A DNA stretch of 24,702 nucleotides, the filler included, from an uncultured bacterium (GTDB lineage Bacteria > CAYUVA01): NCBI GenBank assembly GCA_964448115.1. It is 6 parts of 6 records of this genome, joined end to end, with 100 filler letters (N's around TTAATTAATTAA, not from the genome) between each part and the next. Parts side by side here need not be neighbours in the genome. Positions count along the whole stretch, not along the records: positions 16,220 to 19,585 come from CAYUVA010000083.1; 5 more parts are not named here. The stretch is one strand, 5' to 3'. The notes beneath the pieces were generated by a model, which was not told the origin of the DNA, did no database searches, and saw nothing but the letters and a program-made list of their open reading frames with translations. Of the stretch, positions 5,825 through 19,585 are shown one piece after another; position 1 is the stretch's first letter, and the number at the start of each line of letters is the position of its first letter. Made by a program: the position numbers and the translations under genes.

Positions 5825-6397
5825 ATGGCTCGCATATCCTATAAAAACCAGTGCCTGCAGCATTACCAGCAGAAAACGCAGGACGTTCAAAACTATTACG
5901 GCAACTTGCCAACGTTGCTGCAACACCTCGATTTTTCAGTAACCCTGGCATACATGTTCTCCCAGCTGGAATTGGGTCACCGCTGGTTGTTATACCTCGG
6001 GTTGGTGCGTCTTCACAAGCTGAATAGAAATGCATCCTGGGAGGCGATCCACGAGACATATCTAAACAAGGACGATTTCCAGAGATTTTTCCTGATAGTC
6101 TTCGGTCAAAGGATACCTAAGGCCACCATTCAGATCTGGGAAAATGCCGCAGGAATCCGCAACCGTGTCATGCATGGCCGTAACAAACCCACGCTCTCTG
6201 AACTGAAGACAGCCATAGAGCAGGTACTCGATTACTCTGAAGAGATGAACAGGTTCGTGGGTCGCATCTCCCCCGTGCGACCATTTGTTCCGGATCGCCG
6301 TGGGCTGTTGGCTGGTCAGAAGGCACACCTGGAAAACACCAGCAAGTGGGTTCTAAAGGGAATGGGGTTCACTTCATCTCCAAGAAATGGGATTTGA
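5825..6397 (+). CDS. Putative HEPN-domain protein (RNase effector)
   Basis: GAGGAG RBS at 5812-5817, ATG 5825; predicted all-helical 190 aa with an Rx4H motif (IRNRVMHG) and an upstream E (FSQLE). Confidence 0.7.
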   Translation: MARISYKNQCLQHYQQKTQDVQNYYGNLPTLLQHLDFSVTLAYMFSQLELGHRWLLYLGLVRLHKLNRNASWEAIHETYLNKDDFQRFFLIVFGQRIPKATIQIWENAAGIRNRVMHGRNKPTLSELKTAIEQVLDYSEEMNRFVGRISPVRPFVPDRRGLLAGQKAHLENTSKWVLKGMGFTSSPRNGI

Positions 6398-6399
6398 TC

Positions 6400-9084
6400 A
6401 TGCATCGCTCCTCAAACCTATCCACCACCGCTCGTGATCAGGATCTGACAGACATTCGTCCGCTTCTTGAAGAGGTGTTCAGCTTCATGGCAGAATGGCT
6501 GGAAACACGCCTCGAGACGAAGGTCCGGAAACAATGGGAAAAGCATGTTGTCAGGATTCTGAACAGCGGGAAAGAGAAGAAACACATTCAATCCGGTAAC
6601 TGGTCCACGGTTCATGATCTTGATGAACAGTCCAAGATCCGTGTGTTTGAAAGAAACTACCGTTTTCTGGAGCAGAAATGCAGCTTCCCGCCCAGTTCAG
6701 AATATCTGATCGGCAAGGTTCGTGAAGTCAGAAACAATCATATCGCTCACCGGCCCGGTAGGGGAGTTAAACCGAATAGTGCCTTGAGAGCCCTTGACAT
6801 TATTGACGAGTTTCTCGAGCTCCTGGAAGCTCCACGGGCACTTCTCAAGAGAGTGGAAAACCACCAGCGGCAACTGCGTGAACTGATCGAAGCGAAACAG
6901 GTTTCGGTTCGGGGTGGCGCGTTTGCCCAGGCAACCAAACCAGTGGGAGCCCCAATCGCTGAACCCGGTTTTGAAGATGTTTTCGAAGGATTCAGGTTGA
7001 CACCATCCCAGGGTGAGGCGGTCCGAAAACTTGACCAGTTCCTGCGTGATCCGGACTCAAAGTGCTTTGTCTTGAAGGGTTATGCCGGTACGGGCAAGAC
7101 ATTCCTTATCGGCGGGCTCTACCGGTATCTGACCAAGTTGAAAACAATGACGATGCTCATGGCACCTACAGGTCGGGCGGCTCATGTAATCTCTGAACGG
7201 CATCAAGTGCCGGCATCAACCATCCACCGTGGCATTTACACCTTAGATAAGCTGGAAGAATTTCCGGAAGTCGAGGAAGACGGGACCATTGCCTACAAGA
7301 TGTATTTCAGCCTGCGGAACAATGATGTTCAGCACGATACGATATTCATCGTGGATGAAGCATCTATGATTTCTGATGTCTACCAGGAGGCAGAATTTGT
7401 CCGCTTCGGGTCGGGTCGTCTTCTTCGTGACCTGCTTGAATTCATCAATTTTGACGCCAATGACTATTCCAAGAAGCTGATCCTCATCGGTGATGACGCC
7501 CAGCTTCCACCCGTGGGGATGAACACCTCTCCTGCCCTGGATGTTGACTACCTGAAGACCAATGGAAGGATTGATGTTCAGCAGCACCTACTAACCGATG
7601 TGGTCAGGCAGGAAGAGTCCAGCCTGATCCTGAAGAATGCTACTGCACTTCGAGAACTGCTGCGCAAGAGGGATTACAGCGCTTTCTCATTTGCCTATGA
7701 TGATGATAGTGTTATCAATCTCCAACCTGACGAGGTTCTCGATCACTTCGGCGCTATCAGTGAGGATATGGACATCGAATCAGTCATCATTACCTATGCC
7801 AACAACACCGCAAAAAACTACAATGACGCAGTGAGGAAATATATCTTTAAACGAGGAAAGGATATTTCACCGGGAGACCGACTTATTGTCATCCGGAACA
7901 ATTATGGCCATGAGATTGAGCTATTCAATGGTCAAATGGGGATTGTGGTTGATGTGGGGGGTGAAGAAGAGCATCGTATTGTCCGGTTTTACTCGGGACT
8001 AGATGATGATGGGAAGAGGCGGATAGTCGAAGTACAACTAAGGTACCAGCATGTAACGATTGAGTTTAAAGATCTTTCAGGCGAAACCCACCAGATTAGT
8101 TGCGTGATTCTCGCTAATATACTCCATTCCATAAATCGTGATCTCAGTACCGATGAGTCCAAGGCCCTTTATATTGATTTTAAAAACAGACATCCGGATC
8201 TGAAGCCGCATGATCCAAGATTTCGCGAAGTCCTGCTGGCCGATCCTTATTTCAATGCCTTACTCGTAAAATACGGCTACGCAATCACAGGTCACAAATC
8301 CCAGGGTGGGGAATGGGATAATGTGTATATCGATTTCAAGTCGCAGAACAAACTGAATGCTACCGCCCTCCGTTGGAGCTATACAGCCTTGACCCGCGCC
8401 CGGAAGCGTGTGATTTTAACAAACCCAATCTTCCAAGATCGGTTGGTCCCGAGGAAGGGGATCGAATGGACGGAGGAAGGTGGTGAATCGGAAGTACCAT
8501 CGACTGATGATGTTGAGGTCCCTGAGGAAATTGCTGAACGTGGTGTAATTCCGGCAGGCATTTATAGGCTCGTGGTGAGGTGTCTTTCCGAAGACATCGA
8601 GATTACCTCCACGCATTCCATCAATTACGCAGAGAAGTACCGCTTTACCGATGACGATAACAACACGTGCAGAATTGTGATCTATTACGACAAGAAGTCA
8701 GTCATTAAAACGATCCATGTTGAGCAGAAAAGCAATGATGAGTTTGGCGCAAGGATCAAAAAGGCCCTGAAAGGCCTTGCTGGTAAGAAAACAGCTAGTG
8801 GCGAATGTAAGCAAAAGCCGGAAGACATCATTGGAAATATTGCTGAATATAAACGTATCATTATCGCCGAGATTAACAAGAGATTACAGGATGAACCAAT
8901 ATCAATCATTAGTATTCGTGATATCAGCCAGTACAGTATGGAGATACACTTTAAAGACACAAAAGAAACTGGAGCAGCGATCTACTACTTCGATAAAAGC
9001 AAACGACTCACGACGTTGAGCATTAAAGGAAGCAGGTCATTGTACGAAAAGTGGAAGGCCATACATCAGGTTGCTTATGAATGA
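6400..9084 (+). CDS. SF1B RecD/Dda-like helicase with N-terminal Swt1-like HEPN domain and two C-terminal alpha/beta (TBP-like) repeats
   Basis: GYAGTGKT, MAPTGRAA, ASTIH, IVDEASMI, LIGDDAQLPPV, LTDVVRQ, YAITGHKSQGGEW, YTALTRAR; N-terminal REVRNNHIAH. ATG 6400 lies 2 nt after the previous stop. Confidence 0.88.
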   Translation: MHRSSNLSTTARDQDLTDIRPLLEEVFSFMAEWLETRLETKVRKQWEKHVVRILNSGKEKKHIQSGNWSTVHDLDEQSKIRVFERNYRFLEQKCSFPPSSEYLIGKVREVRNNHIAHRPGRGVKPNSALRALDIIDEFLELLEAPRALLKRVENHQRQLRELIEAKQVSVRGGAFAQATKPVGAPIAEPGFEDVFEGFRLTPSQGEAVRKLDQFLRDPDSKCFVLKGYAGTGKTFLIGGLYRYLTKLKTMTMLMAPTGRAAHVISERHQVPASTIHRGIYTLDKLEEFPEVEEDGTIAYKMYFSLRNNDVQHDTIFIVDEASMISDVYQEAEFVRFGSGRLLRDLLEFINFDANDYSKKLILIGDDAQLPPVGMNTSPALDVDYLKTNGRIDVQQHLLTDVVRQEESSLILKNATALRELLRKRDYSAFSFAYDDDSVINLQPDEVLDHFGAISEDMDIESVIITYANNTAKNYNDAVRKYIFKRGKDISPGDRLIVIRNNYGHEIELFNGQMGIVVDVGGEEEHRIVRFYSGLDDDGKRRIVEVQLRYQHVTIEFKDLSGETHQISCVILANILHSINRDLSTDESKALYIDFKNRHPDLKPHDPRFREVLLADPYFNALLVKYGYAITGHKSQGGEWDNVYIDFKSQNKLNATALRWSYTALTRARKRVILTNPIFQDRLVPRKGIEWTEEGGESEVPSTDDVEVPEEIAERGVIPAGIYRLVVRCLSEDIEITSTHSINYAEKYRFTDDDNNTCRIVIYYDKKSVIKTIHVEQKSNDEFGARIKKALKGLAGKKTASGECKQKPEDIIGNIAEYKRIIIAEINKRLQDEPISIISIRDISQYSMEIHFKDTKETGAAIYYFDKSKRLTTLSIKGSRSLYEKWKAIHQVAYE

Positions 9085-10801
9085 GCCGACATCAAAGGAT
9101 GTGTTTACATTGCGGAAAGAGGGGAAATTGGACGATGCGCTTATCCTGGCTCGTCAGGTGTACGCAGCGGACCCTCATGATGAATGGAATATCAAAGCGT
9201 TATTCTGGGTGCTGTACGATTTGGTGAAAAGGAGTGTGGCTGGCAAGGCGCCGGACTTGGAGGATCTGGTCAACGAGATCAAGAAAATAGAGGTCTCAAG
9301 CATCCGGGATCAGTATATAGAAAAGGCGGAAACATTCTTAGAAAGGCTGTCTCTACCAGGCGGAGCGGAGCTGTTCCAGGCTCGTGAGTTGAGCAAGAGC
9401 GGCAACCATCATGGCTCACTGAAAATCCTGCGCCGGTTGAATCGGCAATATCCTGGCCGAAGGGATATCGAAGAATCGCTCGGTTGGGAATTGTACCGGG
9501 TCGCAAAAGATACTGATGAAGGTTCCGCTGCTGTTTGGGACTACTTGGGCGAGTACTCAAAGCTGACGTCTCTCCATGAACCAGGACTGCTACACTCAAA
9601 GATACTTGTGGCTTCCCTCGGCACAGCAAAAACTTCCGCGAGACTACTTGATTTCGTGAAGTGGTGGGACTTGGACAACTTGAGGTATGAAGACTGGGAT
9701 AAGCATGGGAGAAAACCTCCACTGAGTAGATTCAATCTTGAGCCTGCCTCGAAACCTGCTAAAGAGTTTCCCGCCACCTCACTTGCCCTGCGCGTCGCAC
9801 GGGCACTTTATCACAATGTTAAAAACTTCCATATAGCCAGAGGTAAAGAACTGGAGTGGGTCGCCGAATTCCTATTGAAAGTCAATGAAAAAGAGGAGGA
9901 TGAATATCTCCCGTACTACGTCACAAAGATGATGACATGGGCGGGGTTGGATCCCTCAACGATGCGGTCGCAGGTGATTCCACTCGTGAGAAAGAAAAGT
10001 ACAGAATACTGGATTTGGGATTCACTTGCCAGGACATACGACATGTCGGATGTGCAGTATGTGCAGTGCTTCTGCAAGGCGGCTATCGGCAAGGCTCAGG
10101 AAGAATGGTATAAGAGGGAAGTTTATGCAAATCTGGCGCTTGCACTGGCCGATCAACGGGAAGTTGCTCACGCGAGTGTGGCCGCCGAAATCTGCATCAA
10201 ACTCTATGAAGAATCTGGACAAGCTCCCCCCGAATCCGTACTCGACCTCACTGAACAATCCTGGTTTACACCCGATGGGAAGACAGCGTTTGAAAAGTTC
10301 CTTAGCGATTCAGCAGCAAAAGCAGAACAGATCCTGTGTGAAGATATCAAGCCCACCCTGGCTGTTATTAGTCGGGTAAATGCCAAGAAAGATGTTGCTG
10401 TAGCTGCCTTTACTGCCAGACAAGTTGGACTCTTACACTATAATCATTGGCCAGATGCCAGGTCTCTACAAGAGGGGGACATTATTGCCGCAAAGGCGGA
10501 TCGTACAGATGATAAAGCGATAATTCTGGCTTGGGAGAAGAGTGATATTGAAGAGATCCCAAGATTATACGAGCGATATAAAGGTATGATAGTGATTCAC
10601 CATGGCAACCTGTTTGGCTTTGTCAATTGCGACATCGGCGACATCTATGTTCACCCAGCATTGATCAAAGAGCACGAGATCGAAGATCAGGACCTACTTG
10701 AGGGCTTTGCTATCAATGAGTGGAACAAAAAGAAAGGTCGAGAGGGATGGCGAGCAGTTACCGTTGAAAAACTTAAGCAAAATATTATTGAATCAGATTG
10801 A
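9077..10801 (+). CDS. TPR-like alpha-helical protein with C-terminal OB/S1/cold-shock-like domains (DUF7017/TOTE-like)
   Basis: N-terminus SKDVFTLRKEGKLDDALILARQ..DEWNIKALFWVLYDLVK, partly repeated at RELSKSGNHHGSL..SLGWELY; C-terminal RNP-like FGFV..DIYVHPALI..WNKKKGREGWRA; overlaps the helicase stop by 8 nt. Confidence 0.75.
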   Translation: MNEPTSKDVFTLRKEGKLDDALILARQVYAADPHDEWNIKALFWVLYDLVKRSVAGKAPDLEDLVNEIKKIEVSSIRDQYIEKAETFLERLSLPGGAELFQARELSKSGNHHGSLKILRRLNRQYPGRRDIEESLGWELYRVAKDTDEGSAAVWDYLGEYSKLTSLHEPGLLHSKILVASLGTAKTSARLLDFVKWWDLDNLRYEDWDKHGRKPPLSRFNLEPASKPAKEFPATSLALRVARALYHNVKNFHIARGKELEWVAEFLLKVNEKEEDEYLPYYVTKMMTWAGLDPSTMRSQVIPLVRKKSTEYWIWDSLARTYDMSDVQYVQCFCKAAIGKAQEEWYKREVYANLALALADQREVAHASVAAEICIKLYEESGQAPPESVLDLTEQSWFTPDGKTAFEKFLSDSAAKAEQILCEDIKPTLAVISRVNAKKDVAVAAFTARQVGLLHYNHWPDARSLQEGDIIAAKADRTDDKAIILAWEKSDIEEIPRLYERYKGMIVIHHGNLFGFVNCDIGDIYVHPALIKEHEIEDQDLLEGFAINEWNKKKGREGWRAVTVEKLKQNIIESD

Positions 10802-10934: not shown

Positions 10935-11034
10935 NNNNNNNNNNNNNNNNNNNNNNNNNNNNNNNNNNNNNNNNNNNNTTAATTAATTAANNNNNNNNNN
11001 NNNNNNNNNNNNNNNNNNNNNNNNNNNNNNNNNN
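10935..11034. other. Artificial contig linker
   Basis: N-run + TTAATTAATTAA + N-run. Confidence 0.99.
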
Positions 11035-12550
11035 TGTATTTGCGTGCCATTGCCGGTCCTCCCTGGTTCTCAGCCTGTTCGACTACTTGGGGCAAGAACT
11101 CGGTATAGAAGTGCTTGGCAACCTCGTACATACCATGCCACTGGGTGAAGTCGGGACCCATCATCGATGCGCCATGCCTGGCTCGCCTTCCCTCGTGATG
11201 CCACAGCTCGAAGTATGTCCACTGCACCTTGCTGGTAAACGGAGAACCGGGAAGCAAGCCATCCTTTTTCATATCAGCCATTAACTGCTTAGATGGTAAG
11301 GCGAATTTGCTATTATAAAGCTCAACCAGCCCATCGAATTGCTCATAGAAGCCATCGGTATGCACTACCTCGTGGCAGCTCATGCAGACACCCTTCATCT
11401 TGTCGCGCCTTTGCTGCCAGGTAACTATTTCCTTGACCCTGCGGGGAACGGTCTTGGAGACCAGCATCCAGTCCTCGACCACCTTTTCAACAGTATCTAC
11501 CATCTCACCTACCTTAGGTAAAGGCTTATCTTCAGGATAGTCAAGCTTGCTGCCGTCCTCGAAGATGACCTGGTTTATACGCTTTGAGACTTCGGGTCTC
11601 AGCGTCCAACTGATGCGTTCGCCGACATCATGGTTATTTGCTACATGCTCACCGCTTGCTGTTCGATATGCTCCAATATGGCAGGTGGTACACGTAGGCG
11701 CTGCTGAATAGTCCACGCCCAGCACCCATTTTCCCTTTTTATCGAGATTCATTCGATGTTCATTTGCATGGAAGGCGATTCCGTGCTTCGATTCCTCGTA
11801 GATCTCGATCTGTGGATGATCGGGTCCCATGTGACACTTGCCACAGTTCTCCGGTCTGCGGGAAAGCTTGGAGTTAAAATCGTGCCTGCTATGACATGCA
11901 TGGCAGCTCCCCTTGGAGCCATCAGGATTCAGCCTTCCCATTCCGCTGTTCGGCCAGGTCGCCGTATCGAGCTGCGGGGCACTCTCCTCCACCATACCAA
12001 GCCTGCCGCCCTCGATCTTGACCTTAGTGCGCAATATCTCACCATTTTCGTTCATGGCGAACTTGATAATGGAGCCGTGGCACTGTGTGCAACCGTTTAC
12101 GGCAGCGAAAGGCTTGCCTGGTGCGCCTTCCACCTTCTCGGCGAGGATGTTATCCAGGCTGGCAAGGATCTCACCTGCCTTAGCATGATGTGATGCTGAG
12201 AACTCGGCGAACTCCCTCGGATGACACTGTCCGCAGTCCTTGGGGGTAACTAAAGTGGAAATAACTGCTCCTTGGTGAGTCCAGGCATCTATCTCGCCCT
12301 GCTCGGCACGATGGCAGTCATAACAGCCGACCCCTCGCTTGGCATGAAGCGAGTGTTCCCATTCCTTGACCAGTCCCGGGGACGCCTGTGAGTGGCAGTT
12401 ATAGCATCCCTCGCTGTTTTTAGCTATGACTGGCTTCTCTTCAGCCTGTGGAAGCTGCCGTTTGACCTCCTTTTGGATGACAATCAGCAGGCTAGCAAGC
12501 AGGATCAACGATAATAAAGCGATTATCCATCTTTTGGCATTAAATGACAT
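11035..12550 (-). CDS. Octaheme cytochrome c of the hydroxylamine oxidoreductase (HAO) family, probably reductive type; 3' truncated
   Basis: N-terminal hydrophobic anchor; eight CxxCH motifs (CYNCH, CYDCH, CGQCH, CTQCH, CHACH, CGKCH, CTTCH, CMSCH); HAO signatures CHMGPDHPQIEIYEESKHG and WHHEGRRARHGASMMGPDFTQWHG. Confidence 0.92.
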
Positions 12551-12583: not shown

Positions 12584-13663
12584 TCAATGCGTAAACGCCT
12601 CCCATAGGGTCATAGCCAGGAAAATGACAATGGCAAGCACTCCCAGGATCAACGAGTAATCCCTGTTAACCTTGAGTCTGTTGAAGATCAGCTCTTCGAT
12701 GAACGGCCAGAGGAGCATAACCAGCGCCAGGATGCCGGTGATGATGACGCTGGTCTGCAGGGCGGTTAGCTTTAGCAGCCTGAAGTTGAAGTAGAAGTAC
12801 CACTCCGGCTTGATATGTTCAGGGGTTCTTATCGGATCAGCTACCTCGCCCAAGCCGACTGGGAAAAGAAGCGATAGCGCTACCAGAATATATAGAATCA
12901 CAAGGGCGATGATTATCTCAGATGTTACATGGTCAGGCCAGAGCTTATAGGGTTTCACAGTCGTTTTATCCTGGGTATTATCGAGCGGTAGCTCGGAGAC
13001 GCCGTGAAGTCTGATGAGCAGAAAGTGTAATCCTAAAAACATGATAGCAAGGACAGGAAGTATGGCTGCATGAAGTATATAAAGCCGAGTCAATGTTGTC
13101 TGCCCTATCTCGGTGCCACCTCGCACTAGATCTGCTAAAAATGAGCCGACCAGCGGAGTAGCCTGGATAAGGTTCATTGCCACCGTTGCACCCCAGTAGC
13201 TCATCTGCTCATAAACCAGGCTGTAACCGGTGAAGCCAAACGCCAGTGTAATCCCCAATAACATCACACCGACCATCCAATTAAGCTGCCTGGGCGAACG
13301 ATATGCACCGGTAAAAAAAACCCGCATCAGGTGAAGCAAAACGGCGATGATCATAAGGTTCGCTGACCATTTATGCAGGCTCCTTATGAACCAGCCGTAG
13401 GGAACTACATTATTGATCTGCCTTACGCTATCATAAGCTTCGTGGGTTCCGGGCACATAGTATAAAAGTAGTAGGAAACCAGTAGCCACCTGGATGCAAA
13501 AAAGTATCAGCGGAGTCCCCCCCAAACACCACCACCACTTCTTCAGGTGATGCGGAATATCCTCGTTTATAAGCTCGGTTATAGCCCCGAACTCAAGTGG
13601 AAACAAGCGCTTCCAAAAGCCTTTTCGCTCTTCTGCCTGTTGGTTCATCGTATCAGGATGCAT
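12584..13663 (-). CDS. Cytochrome b of a Rieske/cytb complex (b6-type fused to subunit IV)
   Basis: WCLGG, RSLHKWSANLMIIAVLLH, FTGYSL, SYWGATV, LHAAILPVLAIMFLGLH, TPEHIKPEWYF. The ATG at 13663 directly follows the Rieske stop (alternative start 13648). Confidence 0.93.
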   Translation of the reverse strand: MHPDTMNQQAEERKGFWKRLFPLEFGAITELINEDIPHHLKKWWWCLGGTPLILFCIQVATGFLLLLYYVPGTHEAYDSVRQINNVVPYGWFIRSLHKWSANLMIIAVLLHLMRVFFTGAYRSPRQLNWMVGVMLLGITLAFGFTGYSLVYEQMSYWGATVAMNLIQATPLVGSFLADLVRGGTEIGQTTLTRLYILHAAILPVLAIMFLGLHFLLIRLHGVSELPLDNTQDKTTVKPYKLWPDHVTSEIIIALVILYILVALSLLFPVGLGEVADPIRTPEHIKPEWYFYFNFRLLKLTALQTSVIITGILALVMLLWPFIEELIFNRLKVNRDYSLILGVLAIVIFLAMTLWEAFTH

Positions 13664-13664
13664 A

Positions 13665-14141
13665 TCATGCTTCTGTTGGTACTTGTAGGAACAGGTTTCC
13701 CGATGCCTGGTCATGTCTTACTTTAACCTCAAACAACCTTTGACCTGCTTCTGCTGGGGGACCGGCGGTCGCTTTTCCGCTGGCATCGAACTTACCTAGA
13801 TGACATGGACAAAAGAAGATACCCTCTTGTGGCATCCAATGCACTAGGCATCCTAGATGCGGACAGATATTGGAGAATCCCCTGAAGCCATCTTTGGTGC
13901 GCAGCACGATGATCTCGCGCCCTTGTAAGTCATGAAAGACCTTAGAAGCATTTACAGGGATCGCCTCTGCCCTTCCAATGAAGAGCTCAACCAATCGAGA
14001 GCTTCTGGAGCGAGGGATCAAAAAGCGAATCCCAATGCCAAGTATGGAGCTAAAGACTGCCAGTAATCCACCGCCCATTGCTACCTGGGAAAGAAACTCT
14101 CTTCTTGTTATTTTCTTTTGATCTCGTCCTTGTTCCATCAC
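13665..14141 (-). CDS. Rieske 2Fe-2S subunit
   Basis: Tat motif TRREFL plus a TM helix; CPHLGC and CPCHLGKF boxes, GPP; start at 14141 (GTG) or 14138 (ATG). Confidence 0.95.
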   Translation of the reverse strand: MMEQGRDQKKITRREFLSQVAMGGGLLAVFSSILGIGIRFLIPRSRSSRLVELFIGRAEAIPVNASKVFHDLQGREIIVLRTKDGFRGFSNICPHLGCLVHWMPQEGIFFCPCHLGKFDASGKATAGPPAEAGQRLFEVKVRHDQASGNLFLQVPTEA

Positions 14142-16219: not shown

Positions 16220-16381
16220 GAGTAAAAATTTGCTACTGCGATCCGATCACTTGCCGTATAACTTACTGATTTTACTGCACTTTTCAAAAATCCGAGAACC
16301 TAAAAGTTACAACTTATAACTATCTTGCGGTAAATACTTGAAAATTAGTTCTCGGATTTTTTGTCCTTGCGCTTCTCGGAT
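16220..16381 (-). promoter_or_regulatory. Probable CRISPR leader pointing leftwards (array expected beyond the contig end)
   Basis: AT-rich non-coding DNA next to cas1. IHF consensus WATCARNNNNTTR at 16259-16271 (minus, AATCAGTAAGTTA) and a near match at 16331-16343; repeated TTCTCGGAT motifs including a 14-bp inverted repeat 16286-16299/16348-16361. Confidence 0.65.
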
Positions 16382-16428
16382 TACCATGATATGAATAACC
16401 TGTCTTACCTTGAAAAGGAGGGTGAACT

Positions 16429-19239
16429 ATGTTTGAAGAGTTCCCGCATCTAACTGATTTCAAATACTATTTTGTCTCTTTTACCCTGCGTATTCACCAT
16501 CGCTTCACGCCTCACTTCTATCATGGTGGGGCAATACATGGCTTCCTCAAGACTTTTCTAATTTCCGACAACCTATTCGACCTGATCCATATCCATCCTC
16601 AGGATACCGGGGTGCCCTCCTTCGGTTCTGGTGAATTCTTTCGATTTAGCCTTGCGGTTGCAGGTGATCAAACGAGCTATCCCTTTATCCGAGAGCTTAT
16701 GCTCCAGGGACAAGATCCAGGCTATTTCAAGGAGACCGATATCCTCGGCGGGAATTACGAGCTTATCGAAATAAGGGATCTTGCAGTCGGCAAGGCGCTC
16801 GATGAAGGGGAGATGCCGACTGTGCTTGATGCAGGTTTTCTAGCAGCCGAATCCGAGAAGCTAGGGCAATATAAAAAGTTTACCCTGCATTTTGTCAATC
16901 CCTTACGAATTACAAGGCAAAAGCCTGAGAAACATCATTCCTTTTTTGATGAACATCACTTTGACATAGACCGATTCTTTAAGCTGCTCGGTCGCCGTAT
17001 AAAGGTGCTATGCGAGGAGCTTTATGATGCCAAACTCCATATTCCATTCGCCGAGCCTCCCGAGCTCGAGGTTGTACAGAATCAGCTATTCTGGATGGAT
17101 GCGCCGAATCCGAGATTCAAAAGCGGAGGCGCCATCGGGAGGGTAACTATCGCAGGCGACCTGCGCCTATGGCTTCCGGCCCTGATACTGGGGCAATTCT
17201 TCGGAGTCGGGCAGATGCTCGGTTACGGAATGGGGCACTACCGGATCCTAGGCGCATCCATCTTCGATATAGAAAGGTTCTGGCATCCTGACTGGATTAG
17301 TCGGATACTGGATACGGAGAACCTCCAAGGGGCTTATGATTACATCAAGAGCAAAAGCAAAGCCAGATATGATGAGATCAGCATCTCCAGGCTTGCAGAG
17401 CAGGTGCGAAGCGGCGAATATGCTCCATCTTCGCTCCAGGGACTAGTGTTAAAAAGCGATGGAAAAAAGCCTCGCTTTCTTGCTATCCCTAATATGAGCG
17501 ATCGCACATTGCAAAGAGCAGTGGTGCAGGTAGTTGGCTCCGCCATAGATAAGCTGTTACAGGATTCTTCTTATGGCTATCGACGTTACTATAGCCGCCA
17601 CGGCGCTGCACGGAGGCTCGACGAGCTTCGGGAGCAAGGGTACTCGTACGTTCTGGATGCAGATATACAGAGCTTCTTCGACAATGTTGACCTGGAGCTT
17701 CTCCTACTTCGATTTCATGCATATTTTCCCGATGATGACCTTTTAGAGCTGGTAAGGGGATGGCTTTTTGCGCCGGTCTGGTTCAATGATAGGCTGTTCA
17801 ACCGCAGCCTCGGTGTTCCCCAGGGGGCGCCGATATCGCCAATCATGGCAAACCTTTTTCTGGACAAGTTCGATGAGAAGGTGCAGGCTCTCGGTTTTCA
17901 ACTGGTCAGGTACGCTGACGACTTTCTAATACTGGCAAAGCGCAAAGAGCATATAGAGCAAGCAAAGATGCTCGCCGAGGAGTACCTCGAAGAACTTAGG
18001 CTGAAGCTGCACCCGGAAAAGACGGAAATAACCGACTTCGAGCGCGGTTTCCATTATCTTGGTTATCTTTTCTTGCGCTCACTGAAATTGGATGTTGGAG
18101 CCAGGAAGCACGAGGATACCTATCCGACTGAGGACGAGATCGAGGAGCTTGTCACTCGCAGTTGGCAGTGCATGCTGGCTGACCCACAACGAGAGTGGAG
18201 ACCGCTGGACAAGTATATGACAGAGCATCGTTACCGGGATAAAAGAAAGAAGCGACTCTTTTTGGATGGCGATGGCTTTTACTTAAAGACAAAGGGCGGT
18301 CTGCTTGAAGTTCGCCAGGGGCATGAACTGCTCGATGCCATGGAGTATAAACGAGTAGGAGAGATACATATCATCGGCAAGACCGGCTTTGCCGGCGCAA
18401 CCTTGAAAAGATGCCTGGCAGAGAAGATCCCGGTCTTTTTCTACGGCGATGACAGCGGTTACCTGGGCACCCTGCAAGCGAAGCATAACCTCGATCTAGT
18501 CGCATCATCCAACCTGTTCAGGATGTTATCATACGCAGACGAAGCGAGGGCAATCGAGCTTACAAGGGCTATAGTCCAAGCCAAACTTCATAACTCGCAG
18601 GTTACGCTTCGCAGGCAGCGCAATCCATTACTGTCAGACAATATAGACAATATAAAATCGTTGATTAAAAGGACGAAAAACGCGACCAGCATTGAAACGC
18701 TAAGAGGCTTGGAAGGCGAAGGGGCTGCTGTTTACTTCAAGGCAATCAGCAAGATCATACCTAGAGAGTTCGGCTTCACCCATCGCCAGATGCACCCATC
18801 GCCAGACCCGGTGAATGCGATGCTTTCATTCGGCTATACCATGTTATGCAACCAGGTCGCCGCGATGCTCCTGGCTCAAGGCATCCCAGTGCAGGCAGGC
18901 ATCATGCATACATCACCGCGAAACCCTGTGGCGCTAGCTAGCGACATGATGGAGGAGTTCCGCTTCCTGGTCGATCAGGTCGTTCTGCGCATAGTCCACC
19001 TGGGTCAAGTGAAGCCGGAGAACTTCTTGATCGATGATGAAAAACATGCCTGCTATCTCGATGATACAGCCAAGCGCGCTCTGATCGTGGCTTTCCAGGA
19101 GAAGCTCGACTCCGAGGTGAAGCTCAGCCCGCAAGATGAACCGCTCAAGTATCGAGAGATCATGTATGATCAGATTGATAGTTTCTCTGATTTTATACGA
19201 ACAGGACAAAGGAGTTATGCTCCATTCAGGATATACTGA
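16429..19239 (+). CDS. cas1: Cas6-reverse transcriptase-Cas1 fusion (type III-associated adaptation protein)
   Basis: RBS AAGGAGG 16415-16421. Cas6: FYHGGAIHG and G-loop GQFFGVGQMLGYGMGHY (17191-17241). RT: LAIPNMSDRTLQRA, SYGYR, DADIQSFFD, GVPQGAPISP, YADD (17911-17922), FHYLGY. Cas1: LRGLEGEGA, DPVNAMLSFGY, GIMH, LASDMMEEFR. Confidence 0.95.
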   Translation: MFEEFPHLTDFKYYFVSFTLRIHHRFTPHFYHGGAIHGFLKTFLISDNLFDLIHIHPQDTGVPSFGSGEFFRFSLAVAGDQTSYPFIRELMLQGQDPGYFKETDILGGNYELIEIRDLAVGKALDEGEMPTVLDAGFLAAESEKLGQYKKFTLHFVNPLRITRQKPEKHHSFFDEHHFDIDRFFKLLGRRIKVLCEELYDAKLHIPFAEPPELEVVQNQLFWMDAPNPRFKSGGAIGRVTIAGDLRLWLPALILGQFFGVGQMLGYGMGHYRILGASIFDIERFWHPDWISRILDTENLQGAYDYIKSKSKARYDEISISRLAEQVRSGEYAPSSLQGLVLKSDGKKPRFLAIPNMSDRTLQRAVVQVVGSAIDKLLQDSSYGYRRYYSRHGAARRLDELREQGYSYVLDADIQSFFDNVDLELLLLRFHAYFPDDDLLELVRGWLFAPVWFNDRLFNRSLGVPQGAPISPIMANLFLDKFDEKVQALGFQLVRYADDFLILAKRKEHIEQAKMLAEEYLEELRLKLHPEKTEITDFERGFHYLGYLFLRSLKLDVGARKHEDTYPTEDEIEELVTRSWQCMLADPQREWRPLDKYMTEHRYRDKRKKRLFLDGDGFYLKTKGGLLEVRQGHELLDAMEYKRVGEIHIIGKTGFAGATLKRCLAEKIPVFFYGDDSGYLGTLQAKHNLDLVASSNLFRMLSYADEARAIELTRAIVQAKLHNSQVTLRRQRNPLLSDNIDNIKSLIKRTKNATSIETLRGLEGEGAAVYFKAISKIIPREFGFTHRQMHPSPDPVNAMLSFGYTMLCNQVAAMLLAQGIPVQAGIMHTSPRNPVALASDMMEEFRFLVDQVVLRIVHLGQVKPENFLIDDEKHACYLDDTAKRALIVAFQEKLDSEVKLSPQDEPLKYREIMYDQIDSFSDFIRTGQRSYAPFRIY

Positions 19240-19547
19240 TGCTGACAATAGCTGTTTACAGGGTTCATGATCAAAACCGCAGGGCTAGATTGATTCGTTT
19301 CCTGAACAAGTATGGTGAAAGGCTGACTACGAATTGCCACCAACTGTGGTTCTCGGAAAAGGATAGGCTAAAGGTGTGCAATCGCATCACAGAGATACTC
19401 GATGGCGATGACTGGATAAGATTGTATAGGGTCTGCAAGCGCTGTATTAAGGGATCAATGGTGTATGGACAACTACCGCCACCAGTGGAGAAAGATGTGA
19501 TATTTTACTCATCCGAGAAGCGAAAGGACGAAAAATCCGAGAACTAA
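19239..19547 (+). CDS. cas2: CRISPR-associated Cas2, divergent
   Basis: TGATG coupling to cas1; 102 aa with Cas2 pattern IAVY..DQNRRARLIRFLNKYGERL..DWIRLYRVCKRC. The usual YD is YR. Confidence 0.8.
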   Translation: MLTIAVYRVHDQNRRARLIRFLNKYGERLTTNCHQLWFSEKDRLKVCNRITEILDGDDWIRLYRVCKRCIKGSMVYGQLPPPVEKDVIFYSSEKRKDEKSEN

Positions 19548-19585
19548 TTTTCAAGTATTTACCGCAAGATAGTTACAAGTTGTAA
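19511..19585 (+). repeat. Inverted copy of the leader-like segment 16307-16381 (second probable leader pointing rightwards)
   Basis: The reverse complement matches 16307-16381 at 72 of 75 nt, runs to the contig end and overlaps the last 37 nt of cas2. Confidence 0.95.

Follow-up and report, generated by a model that had tools for sequence, protein, structure and literature searches.

The reverse transcriptase (RT)-Cas1 module of the type III-D CRISPR system of Vibrio vulnificus YJ016 is flanked by two arrays which have identical repeats and nearly identical leaders, and this system takes up spacers from RNA (PMC6821258). In Pseudomonas aeruginosa, according to a preprint, two arrays of divergent organisation, CRISPR1 and CRISPR2, enclose the type I-F cas operon, and the isolated CRISPR3 has a leader with three mismatches, attributed to duplication (PMC13142298). 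The Cas6-RT-Cas1-Cas2 integrase of Thiomicrospira acts with a 35-bp repeat and a leader that adjoins the array (PDB 7kft/7kfu; PMC8102632). Here we analyse a contig of an uncultured bacterium (assembly GCA_964448115.1, CAYUVA01; contig CAYUVA010000083.1) that occupies positions 16220-19585 of the window, i.e. of the whole 24,702-nt stretch of DNA that was analysed. It carries a cas6-RT-cas1 fusion gene and cas2, bracketed by inverted copies of a multi-copy non-coding unit. In our somewhat favoured explanation, these copies are conserved leaders, each belonging to one of two arrays that face outwards; a third leader would lie elsewhere in the genome, and the arrays themselves would have been lost in assembly.

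Compared with the V. vulnificus module, the protein studied here has an added N-terminal Cas6 domain and is accompanied by one Cas2 instead of two; the copies on its flanks lie in inverted orientation, and no array is seen. The likeness to P. aeruginosa lies in the presence of two copies at the module and a third one elsewhere; in contrast to our locus, the system there belongs to another CRISPR type, has no RT, and its arrays were observed. Thiomicrospira shares with our contig the same three-domain fusion and the separate Cas2, and its Cas6-RT-Cas1 is the top solved-structure match of the fusion (7kft, E 4.9e-82, residues 213-869), but the sequence is very distant, and our contig offers neither an array nor a leader-repeat junction.

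The adaptation genes and the non-coding unit around them

The window consists of six unrelated contigs of 2.2-5.5 kb each, with spacers N44-TTAATTAATTAA-N44 between them, and positions 16220-19585 represent one entire contig of 3366 bp. Open reading frame (ORF) calling and Pfam searches recovered only two genes on it, the cas6-RT-cas1 fusion and cas2, in agreement with the original prediction (Table 1). As had also been claimed, the contig contains no interference genes and no repeat-spacer units: neither an array nor an effector gene was found on it, and none was found in the remaining five contigs of the window. The further proposal, a physical separation between the module and its effector genes, is unsupported: this contig is a small, 3.4-kb piece of a heavily fragmented assembly, with both of its ends inside a multi-copy repeat.

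The stretches 16307-16381 and 19511-19585 are inverted copies of each other, identical at 72 of 75 positions, as originally reported; their local alignment score of 135 compares with 18.0 ± 2.4 (maximum 30) in 300 shuffles, and the repeat finder returned the same pair as 86 nt with a 91% match. The arms differ at positions 16316, 16362 and 16369 and at the mirror positions of these. It had been anticipated that the repeat may be longer, the right copy ending at the contig edge, and this proved to be so: the right arm abuts the end of the contig and the unit to which it belongs is larger.

The contig was found in three public runs, all from one sample of one study. Sequencing depth over 16220-16361 was 27.5 versus 9.9-11.8 in the genes (X1), and 7.1 versus 2.2-3.7 (X3), and the unit is therefore present in about three copies. 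At least three copies, 96-98% alike, are seen, and two of the approximately three are located at the RT-Cas1 module. A piece shared by the public contigs extends past the contig start (16220) by 127 nt in X1 and 132 nt in X3, has G at position 16316, which is the right-arm version, and meets the contig exiting cas2 (end 19560) with exactly 30 common letters, in the manner of neighbours in a 31-letter word graph. Because of this G and this junction, the right arm would span the complete unit, making the inverted repeat approximately 290 nt long and not 75 nt. A further copy matches 16220-16382 with four differences and then continues into 222-255 nt that are unlike either inner flank, and the point at which the three copies part is the same, 16381/16382, to within 1-2 nt. 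In addition, a separately built public contig from the same sample runs without differences from 17162 to 19560, that is, from cas1 through cas2 and 50 nt into the unit. No joints were reported in the public-contig comparison, where contigs, unlike reads, cannot show inversion.

On the right side, the unit fits exactly to the end of cas2. The first base of the cas2 start codon is shared with the cas1 stop codon, and the product was identified as Cas2 by PF09827 (E 1.2e-07) and by TIGR01573 (31.6 bits, cut-off 24.5), the latter placing residues 1-89 on model positions 1-95 of 96. In alignment A2, the terminus of Cas2 lies about 13 residues past an invariant glycine (G77 here) in 10 of 10 relatives. 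Since the relatives and TIGR01573 all stop there, the right inner boundary, 19510/19511, is the native cas2 end; hence the charged tail, by which the Cas2 of the window extends 12 residues past the endpoint of its relatives, is read from the unit, and the right arm overlaps the final 37 nt of the frame. It also follows from this boundary that the unit occupies the entire intergenic space. At the other side of the module, the left copy reaches to 47 nt before the start of cas6-RT-cas1. Where the right copy reads TCA, the left copy reads TAA in the same register, which suggests that a single change removed the cas2 stop codon. As a separate observation, the first 8 bases of the contig (16220-16227) are the reverse complement of 19503-19510, just inside the inner boundary of the right arm, a match that may be due to chance in AT-rich sequence.

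The unit is non-coding, with stop codons in all six frames, and its AT content is 64.4% versus 50.5% in the genes. Its hairpin-forming core (Table 1) is preceded by a run of A and followed by a run of T on either strand. A non-overlapping perfect 14-nt inverted repeat arose in 4 of 20000 shuffles, and the 86-nt hairpin core folded with z values of -3.7 (plus strand) and -4.1 (minus strand), none of 200 shuffles folding as well; for the upstream region as a whole (211 nt), folding gave no significant result (z -1.3 and -1.4). The near-palindrome in the hairpin loop would be perfect in its right-arm version (19572-19585 plus one base past the contig end). The 9-mer TTCTCGGAT has six matches in the window versus 0.29 expected, all of them in this contig and five of the six in the two arms. 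The inner 34-36 nt of the unit, which include two TTCTCGGAT and end in GAGAAC on the cas2 strand, were also considered as a degenerate CRISPR repeat. This idea was rejected, because the local depth of about 16-30 corresponds to no high-copy array and the neighbouring partial copy is opposite in orientation.

Table 1. Coordinates of the features of the cas6-RT-cas1 contig, counted along the window.
Feature	Position	Strand	Basis
Left copy of the non-coding multi-copy unit, truncated where the contig begins	16220..16382	.	Depth, further copy, composition
Hairpin-forming core	16286..16361	.	14-nt arm 16286-16299 and perfect complement 16348-16361, 48 nt apart
7-1-7 near-palindrome in the hairpin loop	16306..16320	.	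Read from sequence
Third copy of the 9-mer TTCTCGGAT, ending where the unit stops sharply on its inner side	16373..16381	+	9-mer count
Ribosome-binding site AAGGAGGG	16415..16422	+	Read from sequence; 6 nt 5' of the start codon, GGAGG core 7 nt away
cas6-RT-cas1 fusion gene, 936 aa, apparently intact	16429..19239	+	Pfam, NCBIfam, structure match, conserved motifs
cas2, 102 aa, residues 1-90 being the Cas2 core	19239..19547	+	PF09827, TIGR01573, alignment A2
Stop codon and 12-residue tail of Cas2, supplied by the repeat unit, without counterpart in relatives	19509..19547	+	Alignment A2
Inverted right copy of the unit, truncated where the contig stops	19511..19585	.	72/75 match to 16307-16381; independent public contig

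The fusion protein combines, in a single polypeptide and in this order, the Cas6 (PF10040, E 1e-08, residues 153-271), RT (PF00078, RVT_1, E 3.3e-35, residues 342-546) and Cas1 (PF01867, E 1e-65, residues 610-891) domains. It reaches 200.9 bits with the NCBIfam cas1 model TIGR00287 (cut-off 71.7), and the Cas6 domain of MMB-1 (6dd5) aligns to its residues 19-275. In an alignment of 12 sequences, comprising the fusion of the window and 11 homologues (alignment A1), the RT motif YADD at 495-498 is kept, with A496, D497 and D498 invariant, and the same holds for the Cas1 columns E762, H827, D839 and E842 and for G255, G261, G267 and G269 of the Cas6 glycine-rich loop. The YADD motif, the acidic and histidine residues of Cas1 and the glycine-rich loop are what we take to be the catalytic parts of these families and, since all of them are invariant, the fusion looks active, as judged by its sequence.

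Two further observations concern the same gene. An 11-mer at 16851-16861, in the Cas6-coding part, equals the start of the right arm (19511-19521) and is read in the same frame (Ser-Glu-Lys); it is probably a coincidence at the codon level. In the Cas1-coding part, at 18777-18806, a 14-nt stretch is duplicated 16 nt apart with the frame intact, and the conserved Cas1 columns R786, D793 and P794 fall within this region.

Related RT-Cas1 loci and the proposed leaders

The closest non-self homologue of the fusion among 5.8 billion proteins shares 32% identity with it, and the host lineage is deep-branching, its top alanyl-tRNA synthetase match having 51% identity. With these values as the maxima, a close relative was sought for comparison of the flanks and none was found. 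More distant relatives were collected by a profile scan of metagenome contigs, which yielded 80 loci, and 26 RT-Cas1 loci were tabulated. A protein search of genome contigs gave only two distant Cas1 matches (L001 and L002).

For the 15 of the 26 tabulated loci with at least 900 nt downstream, the distance from the end of the RT-Cas1 match to the array was recorded: in nine of them the array begins 450-900 nt downstream of this end, and in one more at 2963 nt. A distance of 450-900 nt corresponds to a position past cas2 plus a leader. The unit lies where the relatives carry a leader, which speaks for the leader explanation. The public contigs end about 250 nt from the cas2 stop. This falls within the leader spacing of the relatives, 130-540 nt, as estimated by hand from their array distances with cas2 taken as about 330 nt. 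The repeats of the relatives are 35-37 nt long; as for the 5-nt difference between X1 and X3, we infer only that it would fit a 35-nt repeat with 31-letter words.

Arrays on the upstream side are known from the relatives as well. Such arrays are present in L004, and arrays on both sides were found in L012, L029 and L037, their orientation being direct in all three. Among the full-length relatives with long flanks, L029 is the closest; it is arranged in the order of effector genes, leader, array, cas6-RT-cas1, cas2, leader, array, and its two leaders have conserved blocks in common. Each of these leaders (9214-9600 and 13238-13552) also carries the motif CCGTGC with flanking bases twice, about 100 nt apart, which recalls the repeated 9-mer of the unit.

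We consider it somewhat probable that the copies of the unit are conserved leaders. In this explanation, the deep-branching bacterium has a type III CRISPR system, and the contig is its module for adaptation and CRISPR RNA (crRNA) processing. The discrete non-coding unit of about 290 nt or longer, placed directly after cas2 and mirrored directly before cas6-RT-cas1, would be a conserved block that serves as CRISPR leader. The inner part of the unit, the hairpin with A and T runs, would probably insulate or terminate cas transcription, and its outer part would lead into one array per side, both being read outwards; the third copy of the unit would serve a third array elsewhere. The absence of the arrays would be due to short-read assembly, which breaks at leaders and repeats that have several copies. 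Twin outward-facing leaders had already been offered in the original prediction. The position of the unit, its AT-richness, its non-coding nature, its approximately three copies, its fit to the gene ends and the place where the public contigs stop speak for them, and, since no CRISPR repeat was seen, it is from these features that we infer the leaders.

Several results weigh against this explanation. Neither the contig itself nor any of the five others in the window showed a CRISPR repeat. An Rfam search up to E 1 returned no CRISPR-DR family, its three sub-threshold chance matches all lying inside genes. The flanks showed no likeness to 28 consensus repeats taken from arrays of related loci: over both flanks these scored 10 at most, whereas shuffles gave a mean of 7.5 and a maximum of 14. 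No sigma-70-like promoter was found on either strand of the unit, in a scan for a sigma type which may not be that of the host. All read evidence comes from a single sample, probably the very source of the assembly of the contig. The sharp end common to the three copies suits a discrete element equally well. Finally, among the 14 relatives with usable flanks, upstream and downstream flanks were similar in direct orientation in three and in inverted orientation in none, so that the mirror arrangement is without precedent in this sample.

Alternative explanations

That last result also fits the notion that the unit is a small, non-autonomous element similar to miniature inverted-repeat transposable elements (MITEs), two inverted copies of which bracket the adaptation genes either by chance or as a movable or invertible composite. 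The length of about 290 nt and the AT-richness agree with such an element, as do the sharp inner end shared by the copies, the strong hairpin core and the replacement of the cas2 stop codon by the right copy; TTCTCGGAT, present three times per copy and in both orientations, would resemble subterminal binding sites. All of this has to be set against a copy number of merely about three, with two copies at one module, and against the placement of the unit exactly at the leader position of the relatives. No transposase is seen, and the copies run off the contig, leaving their outer ends, any terminal inverted repeats and any target-site duplications out of view. Nothing similar came up elsewhere: the exact 27-nt core of the unit had no match in metagenome contigs, a gapped pattern for both hairpin arms had none in viral contigs, and among plasmids nothing matched 16220-16428 in a blastn search. 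We regard a MITE-like origin as unlikely.

An intergenic terminator or regulatory module, with a hairpin and operator-like palindromes, may also have been duplicated around the cas genes without any link to arrays. The hairpin begins inside the terminal codons of the extended cas2 frame, is bordered on either side by A and T runs and encloses the 7-1-7 palindrome in its loop, all in line with such a role. The loop of 48 nt, however, is much longer than those of usual intrinsic terminators, a terminator scan of the unit found none, and a terminator alone would leave about 200 nt of additional conserved sequence unexplained. This makes the explanation rather improbable.

Still more doubtful is the idea that hairpin-bearing, non-leader elements of about 290 nt with TTCTCGGAT sites allow the 3.1-kb cassette to invert or, as a composite unit, to travel from one CRISPR locus or genome to another. 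No positive evidence was obtained that the module moves or inverts as a unit.

Casposons, which are transposons that encode a solo Cas1 and a family B polymerase, are bounded by terminal inverted repeats and show target-site duplication, resemble the present contig in having a gene for a Cas1-family integrase between inverted repeats. Unlike in casposons, Cas1 is here fused to Cas6 and RT and followed by cas2, and the contig is without a polymerase B gene. Both identity with and analogy to casposons were rejected on the gene content, which is limited to Cas6-RT-Cas1 and cas2, and on the nature of the repeats, which represent a unit that recurs elsewhere beside a different flank and not the ends of one element.

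That the right arm is an assembly artefact, either a fold-back or a chimeric join, might be suspected from its place at the extreme end of a short contig and from the multi-copy nature of the repeat, but is hardly credible in view of the three differences in 75 positions between the arms, which a fold-back does not produce, and of the separately built contig of the same sample, which crosses the cas2/unit junction by 50 nt.

Neighbouring contigs of the window and significance

The remaining contigs of the window carry genes of other kinds. The contig at 5613-10934 harbours a TOTE-type conflict system made up of two ORFs: the product of the first (6346-9084) joins a Swt1-like HEPN domain, a superfamily 1 helicase and TBP-TOTE, and the next one (9071-10801) encodes DUF7017 and S1/CSD-TOTE-2. 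On the minus strand of 1-2040, an open-ended tetratricopeptide repeat (TPR) protein of 680 aa with a weak N-terminal ATPase match is encoded, and its DNA at 1-348 consists of a 120-nt tandem repeat in 2.9 copies, 95% matching. On the contig at 11035-16119, a multi-haem cytochrome c (10979-12550) adjoins a cytochrome b (12584-13714), a pair that looks like a respiratory module.

As regards the adaptation genes, the leaders we favour would add this locus to the type III RT-Cas1 modules that have an array on either side, a fairly ordinary finding of modest value, in which the arrays would be divergent and not direct, as in the type I-F system of P. aeruginosa. Only a mobile or invertible adaptation cassette, if true, would be new biology.

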